The notes beneath the pieces were generated by a model that saw only the letters and a program-made list of their open reading frames with translations, did not search any database and was not told where the DNA came from. Of a stretch of DNA of 64,000 nucleotides, positions 8,411 to 53,240 are shown piece after piece; positions within the stretch are counted from its first letter, which is position 1, and each line of letters opens with the position of its first letter. This DNA comes from Eledone cirrhosa (Eukaryota), in the NCBI GenBank assembly GCA_964016885.1, contig OZ024741.1:344596001-344660000 (forward strand), given 5' to 3'. The position numbers and the translations under genes were made by a program.

Positions 8411-8475
8411 TATTTTATCTGATGAAAGTGCACCAAGGTTTTCTTGGTTTGCCTTGAAATATATATAATAAAATA
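8411..8475 (+). ncRNA. Type I hammerhead ribozyme (Penelope-type, family H1)
   Basis: TATTTTAT-CTGATGA-stem II-GAAA-TATATA-TA-ATAAAATA; 8-bp stem I; palindromic stem III; element spans about 8345-8520. Confidence 0.85.
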
Positions 8476-31237: not shown

Positions 31238-31308
31238 TATTTTATCTGATGAAAACACAAATGTTATTGCATGATGATATTTGTTTTTGAAATGCGCATA
31301 ATAAAATA
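31238..31308 (+). ncRNA. Type I hammerhead ribozyme (H1-related; stem III TGCGCA)
   Basis: TATTTTAT-CTGATGA-long stem II-GAAA-TGCGCA-TA-ATAAAATA; inverted copy of its 3' tail at 29770-29808. Confidence 0.85.
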
Positions 31309-31382
31309 CATGGAACTCATTTAACCATCTTTTGATCTTATATATATATATGTATATATATATATATTTGTATATATATATG

Positions 31383-37589: not shown

Positions 37590-37868
37590 CATATATATAT
37601 ATACATATATATATATATAAAGTATTGTGGTCTGTATCTATGATTGGAAAGAACATATATGTTTATACATGAATATATACATAGATAAACATGTATATTA
37701 GAACGGGTTGGTTTCTTCTGTAGAATATATCAAACATTTATTGATTCTGAATATTATCCTTGTTTCGACTGATTTTGTTGTTATTAATGTTAATATTACT
37801 ATTGCTGCTGCTTTTATAGTAGAGCAGATGACATATATATACATGTATACATATGTAATATAATATAT

Positions 37869-37908
<40 letters not shown>

Positions 37909-38151
37909 ATATAAGATATGTATATATATATGTATATATATGTAATATAATATATATATATATATGTATATATATATATGTAATATAATATATGTATATA
38001 TATATATGTAATATAATATATGTATATATATGTATATATATATATGTAATATAATATATGTATATATATATATATATGTATATATGTAATATAATATATA
38101 TATATATATGTAATATAATATATATATATATATAATATATATATATATGTA

Positions 38152-38195
<44 letters not shown>

Positions 38196-38473
38196 ATATA
38201 ATATATATATATATATATGCAATATAATATAAGTATGCATGTATACGTACATACATATATGTATACAGACGTACAGTAGCATGCACATATATATATATAT
38301 ATACATATATATATACATATGCATACAGGTACACATACATATATGCACATATCAGTTTAGCGGCGCTTATTATAACGTCGCTTTGTTCGTTTGTAAACAA
38401 ACTGAACAGCCTGAATTTATGCCATACGGTGTTAAGGCAACCACGTCACCTTTTTGTTCAACACTGACACAGG

Positions 38474-38518
38474 AACGATGTACTAGTTTCAAGCTTGTTA
38501 GCTATCATCAGCACCGTT
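38474..38518 (-). ncRNA. Minimal hammerhead ribozyme (family H3), copy 1
   Basis: AACGGTG-CTGATGA-TAGCTAACAAGCTT-GAAA-CTAG-TA-CATCGTT; 7-bp stem I; palindrome ACTAGT. Confidence 0.88.
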
Positions 38519-38759
38519 TACCCATCTGCCAGATAGTTGAACGTTCGAAAGTATATACTTTCCTTATGAAAATTAACGGCTGAGCAGCCTAATTTGCATA
38601 TTGAGTGAGTTAAATCGGTCAGACATACCGAAAACGATAAATTGAAACAAAATGAAAACGAAATTTCATTTCTCACTCTTAGTATGGCACTTGCTTAAAT
38701 GTAAGTATGCATGTATACGTACATACATATATGTATACAGACGTACAGTAGCATGCACA

Positions 38760-38791
<32 letters not shown>

Positions 38792-38949
38792 CATATGCAT
38801 ACAGGTACACATACATATATGCACGTATCAGTTTAGCGGCGCTTATTATAACGTCGCTTTGTTCGTTTGTAAACAAACTGAACAGCCTGAATTTATGCCA
38901 TACAGTGTTAAGGCAACCACGTCACCTTTTTGTTCAACACTGTCACAGG

Positions 38950-38994
38950 AACGATGTACTACTTTCAAGCTTGTTAGCTATCATCAGCACCGTT
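38950..38994 (-). ncRNA. Minimal hammerhead ribozyme (H3), copy 2 (CTAG changed to GTAG)
   Basis: Same core, 476 nt from copy 1. Confidence 0.8.
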
Positions 38995-39159
38995 TACCCA
39001 TCTGCCAGATAGTTGAACATTCGAAAGTATATACTTTCCTTATGAAAATTAACGGCTGAGCAGCCTAATTTGCATATTGAGTGAGTTAAATCGGTCAGGC
39101 ATACCGAAAACGATAAATTGAAACAAAATTCGAACGTTCAACTATCTGGCAGATGGGTA

Positions 39160-39204
39160 AACGGTGCTGATGATAGCTAACAAGCTTGAAACTAGTACAT
39201 CGTT
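39160..39204 (+). ncRNA. Minimal hammerhead ribozyme (H3), copy 3 in the inverted arm
   Basis: AACGGTGCTGATGATAGCTAACAAGCTTGAAACTAGTACATCGTT. Confidence 0.88.
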
Positions 39205-39756
39205 CCTGTGTCAGTGTTGAACAAAAAGGTGACGTGGTTGCCTTAACACCGTATGGCATAAATTCAGGCTGTTCAGTTTGTTTACAAACGAACAAAGCAA
39301 CGTTATAATAAGCGCCGCTAAACTGATACGTGCATATATGTATGTGTACCTGTATGCATATGTATATATATATGTATATATATATATATATGTGCATGCT
39401 ACTGTACGTCTGTATACATATATGTATGTACGTATACATGCATACTTACATTTAAGTAAGTGCCATACTAAGAGTGAGAAATGAAATTTCGTTTTCATTT
39501 TGTTTCAATTCAATATAATATATATATATATATGTAATATAATATATATATATGTATGTAATATAATATATATATATATGTAATATAATATATATATATA
39601 TATATATGTAATATAATATATATATATATATATGTAATATAATATATATATGTAATATAATATATATATATATGTAATAAAATATATAAATATATATATA
39701 TATATATGTAATATAATATATTACATATATATATATATATATACATATGTAATATA

Positions 39757-40516
<760 letters not shown>

Positions 40517-40521
40517 TATAT

Positions 40522-41482: not shown

Positions 41483-42961
41483 GTTGATGAATGGCTTGTG
41501 AGAGCTATACAAGCCATGTATAAAGAAACAGTCAGCAAGGTTAGAAAGTTGGTGTTCATCAGGGCTCTGTTCTTAGCCCCCTACTATTTATTATTGCCCT
41601 TCAGGCTATAACAGAGGAGTTCAAGACCGGCTGCCCATGGGAACTCCTATACGCAGATGATTTAACACTCATAGCTGAATCAATGGCTGAACTAGAGAAG
41701 AAATTCCAAATATGGAAGCATGGCCTAGAATCAAAAGGCCTTAAAATTAACCTGTCTAAGACTAAAGTTCTAGTTTGTAGGAAGGAAAATAGGGCACTGG
41801 TCCCATCTGGGAAATGGCCATGCTCAATGTGTAGGAAAGGAGTAGGCAGAAACTTCATTTTATGTCCCAAATGCAAAGTATGGGTGCATAAAAGATGTAG
41901 TGGGATCACAGGTAAGCTAAGAACGTAGATTTTATATGTGGCCGATGCTCAGGTGCAATAAGTAGCAAGTGCCCACAGGATACTAGCTCCTTCTATTGCC
42001 CAGATGGTTCTATAGAAATAGTGGTCACCTAAATCAGCAGTGGTGGAGGGTGCTTTGTAAGTACAGTAGCTAGAGTCAGAACGGGATGGAAAAAGTTCAG
42101 AGAGCTTATAACACTATTGGCCGCTAAAGGGTTCTCTCTAAAAATGAAAGGCAGGCTGTATGATGCCTGCATACAAACAACAATGTTATATGGCAGTGAG
42201 ACTTGGGCATTGTGTGCAGAGTATATACGCAGACTGGAGAGGAACGAAGCTTGCATGCTCCGTTGGATGTGTAATAGTAATATATGTGAACGGCAAAACA
42301 TAAATGAACTAAGGGAAAAATTAGGAATAAGAGGAATCAGATGTTGTTTACTCAAGAGAAAACTATGTTTGTATGTCACGTGATGCGCATGAAAGATGAC
42401 AGCTGTATAAAAAAGTGCAGGGCGATAAAAATAGACGGTAGCCACGGAGTAGGCAGACCCAGAAAAACCTGGGACGACTTGATAAATTTCGGCCACACAC
42501 ACTTACACCTCTCCAAGACAATGTCACTGGACCAAGATCTTTGGCGCTACTCAGTAATACAGAAGACAAGCCTTGCCTAAGTACAAAGCGAAACCTACAG
42601 TCAGTAGGCACTTCTAACAAAAATACCACGCCCGTCCCACCACGCCCACCCCATCCACACCACCCCTTTTGATGTAAAGTTATGTTTGTACCACAACATC
42701 CATTCCGAAATAAATGAAGTCATGTCACGAAAAAAAAAAAAAACACACAGTCCACACTGTAATGTGACCGTGTAGGTAACACGGTAAAAACCTCCCAGAC
42801 CCACACTGTAAACGCGGTTGGTGTTAGGAAGGGCATCCGGCCGTACAAAACCCGCCAGACAGTCCTACACGAGCAAGACAACCAATCTTGCCTCAAGTTG
42901 GAAAACTCCCGTCCAAACCCATGCAAGCGTGGAAGACGGACGTTAAACGATGATGATGATG

Positions 42962-46618: not shown

Positions 46619-46929
46619 GTGCATACATGTATACATACATATGCATACATGTACACATGTAATATAATACAATACATATATATATATGTGTGCGTGTATG
46701 TGTATCTGTATATATATATATGTGTGTGTGTATCTGTATATATATGTGTGTGTATCTGTATATATATATGTGTGTGTGTAATCATATATAATGCATATAT
46801 ATATATATATACATATATGTATACATATACACACACACACATATATGTAATATAATATATTATATATATACATATATAATATATTATATATATATAAACA
46901 TGTATGTATCATAATATATAATGTAATAT

Positions 46930-49299
46930 AACACTAAATCCCTCCCCCATGAAGAATGCACCTCCCAACATAGACTGATAATTAGCGACCTCATAGTCAG
47001 GACGAGACGTACTCGACAACAGAAGAGGACTATCCTCAGGAGGAAAATATGGAAGCTAAAGGACCCCACAGCCAGGAATAAATTTCAAAGCATATTATTT
47101 GATGCTTTCGACAGTAAGGAAGAACATTTAGAGTCGGACAATATAGAGGGAGAGTGGGAATTTCTGAAAGCAAACCTGCTGTTGGCGACAGACGAGGTCT
47201 GTGGCTGGAGCAGGCCTGTAGGCAGGAGGAGAGTAACATGGTGGTGGAACAGTAAGGTGGAGGGGTCAATTAAGGCCAAAAAGCAGGCTTGGAAAGTATG
47301 GCGGGATGGGGGAAGTAGAGAGGACTATCAAGTGGCCAGGAGGGAAGCTAGGAGACAAGTGTACTTAGCAAGAAGGGAAGCTGAGGAAAGAAAGTTCAAG
47401 CATGTTCTACAACGCGATGACCAAAAACGTGAGGTGTTCAGGATTGCTAGGCAATGCGTCAAGGAAAACCGTGATATTGTCGGGGAGAAGTGTGTACTAA
47501 ACGACGATGGCACACTTGCCATCACCGACGCTGATAAGAAGGTAGCTTGGAAGTGTCACTATGAAAGGCTTCTAAATGAGGAGAATAATTGGGAGAAAGG
47601 CAGTCTCCCCCATATCGACCCAATAGAGGGACCAGCAGTGTTAGTCGAGGGGAGTATAATAAGTAAGGCAATCAAGGATATGAAGACTGGTAAGGCGGCT
47701 GGGCCTTCGGAAATAGTTGCTGAGATGCTGAAGGCATCTGGCACGGTGGGACACACCATGGTCACCCGCATAGTTAACCAAGTCGTACAGAACGGGGTTG
47801 TTCCGAAGGACTGGCATAGCAGCATCATCGTTAACTGTTATAAGGGTAAAGGAGACGCCCTAGATAGGAGTAACTATAGAGGCATTAAATTAATCGACCA
47901 GGTCATGAAGGTCACGGAAAGAGTAATAGCGCAACTAATCAGAGAGAGAATTGACCTAGATGAAATGCAGTTCGGGTTTGTGTCAGGCAAAAGTACCACA
48001 GACGCTCTTTTCATAGTACGACAACTACAGGAGAAGTACCTAGCTAAAGGTAAACCCCTCTACTTAGCTTTTGTCGACTTGGAGAAAGCCTTCGACAGAG
48101 TCCCCCGCTCCATTATCTGGTGGGCTCTTAGAAAACTAGGCGTTGACGAATGGCTTGTGAGGGCTATACAAGCCATGTATAAAGAAACAGTCAGCAAGGT
48201 TAGAATTAACAACGAATATAGTGAAGAGTTTAGCGTAAAAGTCGGCGTCCATCAGGGCTCTGTTCTCAGTCCACTACTATTTATTATTGCCCTTCAGGCT
48301 ATAACAGAGGAGTTCAAGACAGGCTGCCCATGGGAACTCCTATACGCAGACGACCTGACACTCATAGCGGAATCAATGGCCGAGCTAGAGAAGAAATTCC
48401 AAACATGGAAGCACGGCCTAGAGTCAAAAGGACTTAAAATTAACCTGGCTAAGACCAAAGTACTAGTTTGTAGGAAAGAAAACAAGGCGGCGGTCCCTTC
48501 TGGGAAATGGTCGTGCTCGGTGTGTAGGAAAGGCGTAGGTAGAAACTCCATTTTATGTCCTAAATGCAAAGTATGGGTGCATAAAAGATGTAGTGGGATC
48601 ACAGGTAAGCTAACTAAGAACATAGATTTTACATGTGGCCGGTGCTCTGGTGCAATAAGTAGCAGCAAGTGCCCACAAACTACTAGCTCTTTCAATTGCG
48701 CAGAGGGTTCTATAGAAATAGTGGACAGCTTCCGTTACCTGGGCGATAAAATCAGCAGTGGGGGAGGGTGCTCTGAAAGTACTGTAGCTAGAGTCAGAAC
48801 TGGTTGGAAAAAGTTCAGAGAGCTTATACCACTATTAGCTGCTAAAGGGTTCTCACTAAAAATGAAAGGCAGGTTGTACGATGCCTGCATACGAACAGCA
48901 ATGCTGCATGGCAGTGAGACCTGGGCATTGTGTGCAGAGGATATACGCAGACTAGAGAGGAACGAAGCTTGCATGCTCCGCTGGATGTGTAACAGTAATA
49001 TACGTGAACGGCAAAGCATAAACGAACTAAGGAATAAATTAGAGATAAGAGGGATCAGATGTTGTTTACTCGAGAGAAGGCTACGTTGGTATGGACACGT
49101 GATGCGCATGAAAGTCGATAGCTGTATAACAAAGTGCAGGGCAATAAAGATAGACGGTAGTCACGGAATAGGCAGACCTAGAAAAACCTGGGACGAGCTG
49201 ATAAACTCCGACATCACACACTTACACCTCTCCAAGACAATGTCACTGGACCGAGACCTTTGGCGGTACTCAGTAACAGAGAAGACCCGCCTTACCTAA
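46930..49299 (+). CDS. RTE family-2 ORF, 5'-truncated at the end of the APE domain but uninterrupted through RT and C-terminus (element extends to ~49699)
   Basis: Open from NTKSLPHEECTSQHRL; RT motifs [25 protein letters not shown]. Confidence 0.95.
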   Translation, partial: NTKSLPHEECTSQHRLIISDLIVRTRRTRQQKRTILRRKIWKLKDPTARNKFQSILFDAFDSKEEHLESDNIEGEWEFLKANLLLATDEVCGWSRPVGRRRVTWWWNSKVEGSIKAKKQAWKVWRDGGSREDYQVARREARRQVYLARREAEERKFKHVLQRDDQKREVFRIARQCVKENRDIVGEKCVLNDDGTLAITDADKKVAWKCHYERLLNEENNWEKGSLPHIDPIEGPAVLVEGSIISKAIKDMKTGKAAGPSEIVAEMLKASGTVGHTMVTRIVNQVVQNGVVPKDWHSSIIVNCYKGKGDALDRSNYRGIKLIDQVMKVTERVIAQLIRERIDLDEMQFGFVSGKSTTDALFIVRQLQEKYLAKGKPLYLAFVDLEKAFDRVPRSIIWWALRKLGVDEWLVRAIQAMYKETVSKVRINNEYSEEFSVKVGVHQGSVLSPLLFIIALQAITEEFKTGCPWELLYADDLTLIAESMAELEKKFQTWKHGLESKGLKINLAKTKVLVCRKENKAAVPSGKWSCSVCRKGVGRNSILCPKCKVWVHKRCSGITGKLTKNIDFTCGRCSGAISSSKCPQTTSSFNCAEGSIEIVDSFRYLGDKISSGGGCSESTVARVRTGWKKFRELIPLLAAKGFSLKMKGRLYDACIRTAMLHGSETWALCAEDIRRLERNEACMLRWMCNSNIRERQSINELRNKLEIRGIRCCLLERRLRWYGHVMRMKVDSCITKCRAIKIDGSHGIGRPRKTWDELINSDITHLHLSKTMSLDRDLWRYSVTEKTRLT

Positions 49300-49976: not shown

Positions 49977-52900
49977 TAAATGACCATGCTGTAAAATGGA
50001 GGGGTAGAGAGGACCCTTGAGTCTAGTAAGACATCCTCTCTAGTGCTGGTGGCACAAATAAAAGCACCCAGTCCATGCTGTAAAGTGGCGCTGGTGTTAG
50101 GAAGGGCATCCAACCAGTGTATCAGTGCCAAAAAGCTTATCAGCACAGCAACAAAACAGCATAGAAAAATATGAAGACGTCGCATCTCAGAGTTGCAACA
50201 CTTAATGTTGGCACTCTCAGAGGTAGATCTGCTGAAATAGCGGAGATGCTGGAGAGAAGGCAGGTGGATGTGTGCTGCGTGCAAGAGGTGAGATGGAGAG
50301 GTGCCTCTGCGAGACTAGTCGTAGGCAAGCGTCTTAGCTATAAGCTATTCTGGGTAGGTAAGGATGATGGGTTAGGGGGAGTAGGCATTTTCCTGGCTGA
50401 GAAATGGATCAATAAGACAATAGAGGTAGTTCGAGTTAGTAATCGAATAATTAAGCTTAGATTAGTTGTAGGTAGGAGACTACTGACAATCATCTCGGTC
50501 TATGCTCCCCAAGCAGGCCTAGGCAAAGATGAGAAAGACTGCTTTTATGAGCAACTTTTGCAAACAACCACAATGACAGAGGACGGAGACATCGTTATGC
50601 TAGCAGGAGACTTCAATGGTCATGTTGGACAGCTCCAGGATGGTTACACTGGGGTACATGGTGGGCATGGTTACGGTTCAAGAAATGAAGAAGGAGTGAG
50701 ACTTCTTGAATTTTGTGATGCAAGTACATTGACTATTTGCAACACAAACTTCCAGAAACCTGCCAATCACCTAATAACCTACAAATCTGGTGAGCACATA
50801 AGCCAGATTGACTTCCTGCTAGTTAGGCAGCGGGACAGGCAGATAGTGTCTAATACCAAGGCATACCCTGGGGAAGAATGTACCCCACAGCATAGGTTAG
50901 TTGTTAGTGATATCTCAGTAAGCAAGAGATGGAATGAGCCATATAGGAAGGTGTGGAGAAGAAAGGTCTGGAAGCTAAAAGACCTTTCACTAAAATTCAA
51001 ATTTAGGAAAGCCCTTCAAGATGTATATGACGAAAAAGAAGACGATTTAGAGACGTATGACATAGATAATAACTGGAAGTTCTTACGTGACAACTTGCTG
51101 AAGGCTACTGATGAAACCTGTGGCTGGAGCAGAGCTCCAACCAGACAGAGAGTGACCTGGTGGTGGAACAGCAGTGTAGATAAGGCTATTAGAGACAAAA
51201 GACTAGCATGGAAGGCTTGGAATAAGGGTGGGAGTAGGGAAGAATATACAGCCACTAAGAGAGAAGCTAGACGTCAGGTGTACTTAGCACGCAGGAAGGC
51301 AGAGAGTAGGAGGTTTGCCAATGTTCTGCGACGGGAAGATCAGAGGCGTGCGGTGTTCCACATTGCAAGGCAGTGTGTCAATGCAAATCAGGATGTTGTT
51401 GGTGATAAATGTGTCCGGGATGATGCCGGTGTACTTAGTGTCACGAATGACCAGAAAAAGGAGGCCTGGAAATGTCATTATGAGAGACTGATGAATGTGG
51501 AGAACGAATGGGAGAGAGAGAAATTACCCTTGGTAGATCCGACAGAGGGACCAGCTATTGAGATTGACGAATATAGGGTCCAAGAGGCGATTAGGGAAAT
51601 GAAAAATGGTAAGGCGGCCGGACCATCGGGAATAGTTGCTGAGATGCTGAAGGCATCAGGGGACGTAGGCACTAAACTGGTTGCACGCATAATCAATCAG
51701 GCTATATATGGTGGTGTCATACCCAAAGACTGGTGCAGCAGTATTCTCATAAATTGCTACAAAGGTAAAGGGGATGCTTTGGAGAGGAGCAATTATAGGG
51801 GTATAAAACTGATAGATCAGGTTATGAAAGTGGCAGAAAGGATTTTAGCACAACTAATTAGAGAAAGGGTCAAACTAGATGAGATGCAGTTTGGTTTTGT
51901 GCCTGGGAAGAGTACAACAGATGCCCTCTTCTTGGTGAGACAAATGCAAGAGAGGTTCTTAGAGAAGAATAAGCCACTATACTTGGCTTTTGTTGACCTA
52001 GAGAAGGCCTTTGATAGGGTACCCCGATCTGTCATCTGGTGGTCCCTAAGGAAGCTGGGTGTTGAGGAATGGCTTGTAAGGACAGTGCAAACTTTGTACA
52101 GAGGTACTCTCAGTAAAGTCAGGGTAGGAATGGAGTTTAGTGAGGAATTCCAGATACAAGTAGGAGTACATCAGGGTTCGGTCCTCAGCCCGCTCTTGTT
52201 CATTATAGTCCTCCAAGCCATAACAGAGGAGTTTAAGACTGGCTGTCCATGGGAACTTCTCTATGCTGACGATCTGGCTCTTATGGCAGAATCAGTAGAG
52301 GAGCTAGAGAATAAATTCCGGCTATGGAAACAGCAGTTGGAAGCAAGAGGACTGAGAGTAAATCTAGCTAAGACAAAAGTGTTGATGAGTAGAAAAGAGG
52401 ACAAAACCCTGATTCCGTCAGGGAAATGGCCATGTTCGATATGCAGAAAAGGAACTGGCATAAATTCTATAAAATGCACACAATGTAGGTCCTGGGTACA
52501 CAAGAGATGTAGCGGGATAGCAGGCAAACTAACAGGTAGGGAGAAATATGTATGCAGTAGATGTACAGGGAAATTAGACAGTAGAAGTCGCACTGATAGA
52601 CACATTTTTCAAATGCGAGAGGGCGCTATAGAAGTGGTGGATAGCTTCCGGTACCTAGGAGATCAGATTAGCATGGGAGGAGGGTGTTCCGAGGCCATAG
52701 TATCTAGAATAAGGACGGGTTGGAAGAAGTTTAGGGAGCTGCTTCCTCTGTTGACGAAGAAGGGTTTCTCCCTGCGTACGAAAGGCCGGTTGTACGATGC
52801 CTGTGTGAGGAGCGCGATGCTGCATGGTAGTGAGACATGGGCAGCTACCGCAGAAGATATGCGACGGCTGGAGAGAAATGAGGCAAGCATGCTCCGTTGG

Positions 52901-53240
52901 ATGTGCAGTGTAAATGTGCGTGAACGACCCAGCATAAATGTGTTGAGAGAGAAACTGTGTCTGAGAGGGATAGAATGTAGTGTACGGGAGAGGAGACTGA
53001 GGTGGTATAGACATGTGATGCGCATGGAGGATGACCGATGGGTGAAGAAGTGCCAGGAAATGCCAGTTGAAGGAAGACGTAGTAGAGGTAGACCACGAAA
53101 AACATGGGCGGAGGTGGTGAGAACAGACCTCAGATCATTGAAGCTCACGGTGGAGATGACGAGGGACCGTGACGAGTGGAGAGATGCTGTGCTGAATAAG
53201 ACCCGTCCCACCCTTGCAAGCAGGGAAAAGCGGACGTAAA

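Follow-up and report, generated by a model that had tools for sequence, protein, structure and literature searches.

The window, i.e. the whole 64,000-nt stretch of Eledone cirrhosa DNA analysed here (contig OZ024741.1, positions 344,596,001 to 344,660,000), contains an insertion of 1,280 nt (family median 1,314 nt) composed of two arms which, in the sense of their hammerhead motifs, diverge from a single shared nucleotide at 39129 (Table 1). Repeat analysis of the window places a tandem at 38226-39129 (period 476, 1.9 copies, 97% matches), so that the near-identical head-to-tail units described in the initial annotation are confirmed, as is the inverted arm that crosses the unit junction assumed there (39129-39510, 97-99% complementary to the tandem). 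That junction, set at 38706/38707, has to be given up, as the natural boundaries are the two fixed ends of the family, site B on the left and site A on the right of this copy. The spacing of 476 nt applies from cut to cut, but unit 1 measures 472 nt and the larger figure includes a TA tract that is 4 nt longer in unit 2. Just upstream of site B this internal TA-rich tract folds as a long hairpin; all three window units share its pattern, a fast-changing barcode, and the copy is diverged by about 1.5% among its units.

The insertion is flanked by (TA)n on both sides, as noted initially, and since the 10-nt motif GTAATATAAT recurs in one orientation left and right of it, a single earlier minisatellite tract was likely split by the insertion event. 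The earlier statement that no real open reading frame is present holds: in a trimer of the unit the longest ATG frames comprise 48 aa in sense and 114 aa in antisense direction, and the window frame of the latter length (38233-38583) begins inside the TA tract. Neither the unit nor the insertion harbours a frame combining reverse transcriptase (RT) and GIY-YIG domains, i.e. this is not an autonomous Penelope-like element, and apart from the tandem unit no direct terminal repeats of the Gypsy long-terminal-repeat type are present.

Table 1. Features of the hammerhead-bearing insertion and its flanks (window positions).
Feature	Position	Strand	Remark
Left target flank, TA-rich minisatellite	37841..38230	.	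motif GTAATATAAT x9
Arm B, 1.9 head-to-tail units, hammerhead sense	38231..39129	-	outer end is fixed site B joined to (TA)n
Internal TA-rich tract, unit 1	38232..38352	-	other two copies at about 38707-38828 and 39330-39450
Type I hammerhead, unit 1	38475..38517	-	intact, with the ACTAGT palindrome in stem III; cut predicted between 38481 and 38480
Cut-to-cut monomer, predicted circular RNA	38481..38956	-	476 nt; cut sites predicted
Internal tail copy between units 2 and 1	38637..38698	-	
Type I hammerhead, unit 2	38951..38993	-	stem III C>G (AGTAGT); predicted cut between 38957 and 38956
Arm A, diverging (inverted) arm, 382 nt	39129..39510	+	outer end is fixed site A
Type I hammerhead, inverted arm	39161..39203	+	intact; cut predicted after 39197
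Tail between start sites B and A	39452..39510	+	at the outer end of one arm only
Tail hairpin	39478-39501	+	paired in sister family S3 as well, by different bases
Right target flank	39511..39860	.	motif GTAATATAAT x8, orientation as on left

The three hammerheads have their CTGATGA cores at 38511(-), 38987(-) and 39167(+) and are predicted to be cut after GUA at 38481(-), 38957(-) and 39197(+). The palindromic stem III reported for the repeat is found in two of them, whereas unit 2 reads AGTAGT, so that the two tandem hammerheads are not both intact. With a normal partner the altered stem III is predicted to form a duplex of -3.2 kcal/mol, as compared to -6.8 kcal/mol for ACTAGT, and because this break lies in the upstream hammerhead the window copy is likely to be a poor source of circles. 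As Rfam at gathering scores gives no match in the window and RNAfold does not return the active fold for the isolated 66-nt motif (z -0.35), the assignment is based on the conserved core and on covariation. The 472-nt unit-1 monomer, treated as a circle, folds far better than shuffled sequences (z -7.5), in part due to the TA hairpin. In the terms of PMC4209133, as far as its descriptions go, the window motif is nearer to the canonical metazoan motif with a short palindromic helix III than to the strictly minimal one lacking helix III. Like the hammerheads in the terminal repeats of metazoan Penelope elements described there, it is of type I with a helix I of 6 bp and a helix II of 4-5 bp, and it has a palindromic helix III of 2 bp and is predicted to act as a dimer; unlike them, it resides within a non-coding tandem unit.

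The window insertion belongs to a large family. The exact 38-nt hammerhead core occurs 10,308 times in the 3.0-Gb genome and not once in the reversed control, ruling out chance and bearing out the initial view that the repeat forms a large, retrozyme-like family of non-coding hammerhead tandems. The first 100 listed core places, which lie in the first 69.6 Mb of contig C1, form 50 clusters and extrapolate to about 2,150 loci, i.e. we estimate 2,000 or more insertions. The loci studied comprise all 50 of these clusters (L039-L088, chosen by position, each with at least one exact core), 10 best-match loci (L089-L098) and 40 later loci (L235-L274), 29 of which were chosen by their stem-III variant and 11 as best matches; for variant counts the poly-T columns 38-59 were masked throughout. 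Units measure 470-540 nt, are present in 1 to 47 copies per array and have no conserved frame. Two sister families exist, S2, which is about 80% identical (1,512 first-look candidates), and S3, which matches at 312 of 429 aligned bases and has units of 470 nt (858 candidates). S3, found at L249:5900-7200 and also in L139, L173 and L250, has a GUC cut triplet and exhibits compensatory changes in the hammerhead stems, a flanking helix and the tail hairpin. In contigs from six sequencing runs of unrecorded kind (none of the listed runs being recorded as RNA), which have no bearing on expression, the family was present in three runs of one sample; runs X4 and X6 contained pieces of it, and in X3 the match was limited to 35 bases. 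The junction of a circle would look the same in contigs as that of the genomic tandem.

The hammerhead is conserved as a structure. Between S1 and S2 70 of 343 columns differ, but none of the 12 catalytic columns, and in stem I a G-U pair is replaced by U-G. Over nine copies from S1-S3, an effective sample of only three families, both sides have changed in 5 of 13 stem pairs, and 94.9% of cells can pair, as opposed to 22-44% when the alignment is slid; ACTAGT is invariant in all nine. Genome-wide only 79 copies with stem-III variants were found, 42 of them in two arrays and window unit 2 among the 79, and where copies in contigs of run X1 commonly differ inside the motif, position 7 and loop II are affected and, more rarely, stem I. 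This pattern of conservation indicates that the hammerhead is kept under selection.

The family has the features of a retrozyme, being non-coding, arranged in head-to-tail units with one type I hammerhead each, dispersed, multi-copy and mobile. As in the animal non-LTR retrozymes portrayed in PMC7229834 and a preprint (bioRxiv 10.64898/2026.07.22.740005), these non-coding tandems range from dimers to long multimers and reach thousands of copies in a host with Penelope-like elements, and the short palindromic stem III resembles that of the dimer-acting motifs described there. The unit of about 470 nt exceeds the 170-400 nt given in PMC7229834, but is within the 51-972 bp of the preprint. For published retrozymes, circles and cleavage have been demonstrated, whereas in the family described here both are predicted. 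The main texts of both sources make no mention of cephalopods, inverted arms, fixed ends or (TA)n targets, and a literature search confined to the main texts of papers brought up neither this family nor retrozymes with ends of this kind.

The outer ends of the insertions fall on two fixed sites about 60 nt apart, with B upstream of A; site B is the 3' foot of the TA-rich hairpin and site A is located just 3' of a short AU-rich hairpin. In the 50 clusters chosen by position all 26 diverging pairs combine A with B, none being AA or BB, in addition to 17 single A and 10 single B ends (27 of 79 ends without a detected partner end), and 78 of the 79 ends run into (TA)n. The 40 later loci yield 24 pairs, again all A+B, plus 15 single A and 6 single B ends (21 of 69 without a detected partner), so that in both sets together each of the 50 two-armed insertions has one A and one B end. 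S2 copies and the S3 insertion in L249 exhibit the same pattern. Inner ends, in contrast to these fixed outer ends, are scattered, and the arm-to-arm junctions overlap by 1-4 nt in 18 of 27 mapped cases. The circularly permuted ends anticipated in the initial annotation were consequently rejected. It had also linked fixed ends to terminal repeats of a long coding Penelope element: the ends are indeed fixed, but no coding element is attached to them and they fit internal starts of an RT. As reverse transcription starts internally, fixed ends are no argument against a circle.

According to the accounts consulted, Penelope-like insertions include a truncated copy in inverted orientation and have a tail at just one of their ends (Craig et al. 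2021, PMC8557442), an anatomy explained by two adjacent internal start sites with extension of both strands (Frangieh et al. 2024, PMC11167929). They share with our family the AT-rich or microsatellite targets, the inverted 5'-truncated copy and the tail at one end, and multicopy head-to-tail insertions are reported for the non-autonomous Chlamys elements (PMC8557442); they differ in the length of the tail (30-40 nt as compared to about 60 nt) and in that our family lacks a reading frame. Both Penelope hallmarks, the inverted 5'-truncated arm with a tail at one end and the microsatellite or AT-rich target, are present, and by their layout the A+B ends are the Penelope 'inverted copy plus tail' signature. 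Thus, based on the invariable A+B pairing and the (TA)n ends, we consider it very likely that this retrozyme family is mobilised by a Penelope-type machinery, as had been suggested from the window, with a template other than the cut linear monomer (see below). By every sequence-level feature the family is an animal non-LTR retrozyme, and it behaves like a non-autonomous Penelope element.

One might instead regard the repeat as satellite DNA spread by duplication at the DNA level and fold-back, its hammerhead being a passenger from the terminal repeat of a dead Penelope element. Local amplification of a Penelope end has been proposed in the preprint (bioRxiv 10.64898/2026.07.22.740005), and the longest arrays do show higher-order repeats (C11 with 47 units, L035 with at least 21, C3 with about 30, and L226). 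DNA-level spreading would, however, be expected to produce neither dispersed insertions with two fixed unequal ends in all 50 pairs nor conserved, covarying hammerheads. We regard this explanation as very improbable: it is refuted as a mode of dispersal and stands for the later growth of some arrays, to which the higher-order repeats are due. Three satellite-like grown insertions with higher-order repeats of several units are located at G000:C11:6085000-6109000, C2:379863000-379873000 and C3:180042500-180056100; in two of these arrays more than one third of the hammerheads have the stem-III change of window unit 2. Full-length coding elements between the C11 repeats, a possibility raised by matches spaced 3.5-4.5 kb apart, were dismissed, the region being one continuous array of 47 units.

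The two arms of an insertion record the template from which they were made. Within one locus the arms show no difference in common subfamily alleles in 24 of 27 two-armed loci, whereas this applies to 8.6% of 1,770 pairs of loci taken at random, for which the median is 6 differences. Similarly, the TA-tract pattern is the same between the arms in 20 of 31 loci, but in only 67 of 1,081 random pairs, and in 6 of 27 loci a variant is fixed in both arms and absent from all other sampled loci. These comparisons indicate that both arms of an insertion come from one template lineage. The strict pairing of one A with one B end and the shared arm template are measured here in genomic copies; in the in vitro experiments described in PMC11167929 the two strands were not seen to differ in their start site.

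Which form of RNA served as template can be narrowed down. A linear cut monomer, copied in tandem by an enzyme that jumps from the 5' end of this template back to its 3' end, would likewise yield uniform arrays, each derived from a single molecule. Inner ends do not, however, pile up at the cut (2 of 81 mappable ends are near it, 3.2 being expected; ends inside the TA tract cannot be mapped), 31 of 46 arms exceed the length possible with a cut monomer (14 of 23 A arms, 17 of 23 B arms), and arms cross the cut without scars, the junction being exact in 371 of 373 units. Template jumps by R2-type enzymes usually add or lose bases, so that the exact junctions argue against jumping. Given the few inner ends at the cut, the over-long arms and the exact junctions, the genomic copies, as far as they tell, exclude the cut linear monomer as the template normally used, and the jumping explanation, which we hold to be extremely improbable, is largely refuted.

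The remaining choice lies between a ligated monomer circle and a longer transcript. Arrays of moderate size are star-like, with 116 single-unit and 7 shared variants (five pieces of neighbouring older insertions having been removed before counting), and 26 arrays of three or more units fall into 15 haplotype groups. Larger arrays of 7 to 16 units differ internally by no more than 0.1-0.3%, and these uniform arrays nevertheless have their own variants or tract patterns (L042, L094, L095), which calls for passage through a single unit followed by re-amplification. The circle is, on balance, probably the main template. Cutting and ligation would also be the simplest explanation for a conserved ribozyme in a non-coding element, which has no translation to prepare for, and for arms that cross the cut. 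The same family and the same Penelope machinery might alternatively use an uncut or partly cut array transcript, linear or multimeric circular, on which the two starts would be situated on the same or on different units while the hammerhead only trims. Scarless crossing of the cut site is what uncut RNA would produce, and the Penelope protein of an anole is reported to use mainly uncut RNA (PMC11167929). Moreover, unit types are mixed in some insertions: in L088+L224 a private variant precedes a short-tract unit, and this succession occurs once in one arm but two times in the other; a single arm of L090 contains two tract types, and in the C3 array a two-variant unit type is common to both arms. 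In the C11 array a stem-III variant is found in both arms. As unit types are mixed within an arm and shared between arms, a single monomer circle is insufficient at no fewer than three loci, and the unit types of L088+L224, L090 and C3 fit multimeric templates, perhaps due to incomplete cutting, or gene conversion. Linear copying can, on the other hand, neither lengthen nor homogenise an array, yet the arrays of 7 to 16 units are uniform with patterns of their own, and 30 tract patterns exist among 47 loci; the uniform arrays could, though, also stem from linear transcripts of young uniform arrays. Taken together, an uncut or partly cut transcript as usual template appears rather unlikely.

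The unit might alternatively represent the terminal repeat (pLTR) belonging to a coding Penelope element, with the copies as truncated versions of that element. Coding Penelope-like families are numerous in this genome: GIY-YIG (PF01541) yields 10,596 first-look candidates, of which 150 were scored. Open frames of 844-1,096 aa are present at the GIY-YIG loci L129, L130 and L131, L129 having both RT and GIY-YIG domains, so that several Penelope-like families may have been active recently. A young coding family, P1, has copies that are 98-99% identical (3,560 candidates), a period of 3.7 kb and frames of up to about 820 aa between hammerheads. Its ends form A+B pairs in 11 of 11 cases, two pairs sharing flanks, with a tail of about 90 nt in (TA)n. 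The 821-aa frame of P1 gives no RT or GIY-YIG match in Pfam; its Penelope identity is based on a BLASTP hit to an RT+GIY-YIG frame (E 5e-6), from Atlas neighbours at 0.98 and from the A+B anatomy. Two P1 insertions on G000:C4 (L174 and L175), 0.29 Mb apart and in opposite orientation, have the same flanks and likely represent a segmental duplication or an assembly duplicate. A short P1 end with a hammerhead is also present in the window at 31246-31356 (+), where it ends at the P1 B site in (TA)n.

In favour of the pLTR explanation, the anatomy of the retrozyme is identical to that of P1. Internal copies of site A, however, lead to another unit and never to a reading frame, in arrays with as many as 47 units, and in none of 50 GIY-YIG and 20 P1 loci, a small part of the thousands present, is the monomer sequence found as a terminal repeat or any sequence shared between monomer and coding element. 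Among these loci our family thus showed no similarity to the terminal repeat of a local coding element, whereas 24 of 57 Xenopus retrozyme families are stated in the 2026 preprint to resemble one. Among the 50 C1 loci, coding Penelope sequence is joined directly to an arm only in L052 and L055, both times mid-frame. We thus deem it most improbable that the units are pLTRs. The retrozyme is fused to other Penelope-type families, at an inner end or internally, in 6 of the 50 C1 loci (P1 and F2 twice each, two others once each). The P1 fusions L052 and L055 and the fusions L046 and L067 with another family keep A+B ends, while L047 and L085 look A+A, their labels relying on one or two comparison copies of each fusion family. 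In L052:4700-6200 and L055:2200-5900, where retrozyme units are fused to mid-frame P1, there is one A and one B outer end, and these fusions are either template switches or later deletions. P1 as partner of the retrozyme was not retained, since A+B in 4 of 6 fusions is no better than what deletions between neighbours in one TA tract would give, and the six fusions do not point to any one family as partner. F2 (L198, L200, L189) is spread genome-wide, with 23,267 exact 29-mers of a hammerhead half with long stem III; many of its copies consist of very short head-to-head pairs with arms that break off immediately upstream of GAAAC, the B and A ends are about 68 nt apart, and Penelope-like frames are located upstream at two loci.

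We therefore propose, with moderate confidence, that the window contains one insertion of a high-copy non-LTR retrozyme, likely made by a Penelope RT/endonuclease and probably from one circular monomer RNA with two internal starts. Tandem copies would be transcribed, neighbouring hammerheads would pair via the ACUAGU palindrome and excise a monomer of about 470 nt, and a host ligase would close it. Based on Frangieh et al. (2024) and on the anatomy of the insertions, a Penelope protein acting in trans may then cut both strands of a (TA)n tract and use site A for priming one end and site B, about 60 nt upstream of A, for priming the other, both sites lying just 3' of a hairpin. Each enzyme would copy a variable length, often beyond one full round, and the two 5' ends would finally be joined via the overlap of 1-4 nt seen at the junctions, resulting in a head-to-head insertion. 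Some arrays later become satellites with higher-order repeats. More tentatively, and with slightly less than even confidence, we speculate that a Penelope protein dimer on one circular hammerhead RNA carries out rolling-circle reverse transcription from the two fixed sites at once, one for each side of the (TA)n cut. Several findings, as given in the respective reports, count against cleavage as part of this scheme: hammerheads with a minimal stem III cut poorly in vitro (PMC4209133) and only one of nine Xenopus retrozyme dimers was cut (bioRxiv 10.64898/2026.07.22.740005). For the anole Penelope protein, insertion was unaffected by hammerhead mutants, and the enzyme mainly used uncut RNA as its substrate (PMC11167929).

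Since 2020, proposals as to which enzyme moves animal retrozymes, and whether their circles act as its templates, have been based on co-occurrence and on similarity of sequence, and the 2026 preprint argues on the same grounds that vertebrate retrozymes depend on Penelope elements. The family presented here provides unusually clear genomic evidence for mobilisation of the Penelope type, although the kind of element is already known and the surprise is moderate. It names two start sites, two hairpins and one target that can be used in the existing in vitro Penelope assay, and the origin of both arms from one template lineage but different start sites constrains the still unsettled mechanism of Penelope transposition. 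Should the dimer and the circle prove true, every insertion would preserve a pair of diverging rolling-circle products that go back to one RNA circle. The life cycle of retrozymes would then be readable from genomic sequence for the first time, with at least three sister families (S1, S2, S3) using this route in one genome.

The window contains further repeats of other families. Hammerhead-like motifs are located at 8419(+), 23348(-), 46136(+), 18687(+) and 62254(+), the first three of which have a common core with an ATATAT stem III. Open frames of 790 aa (46927-49296, +) and 1,024 aa (50165-53236, +) are present, the latter of LINE type with endonuclease, RT and PHD domains, and LINE-like fragments are found at 40245-40520 and 41545-41928.
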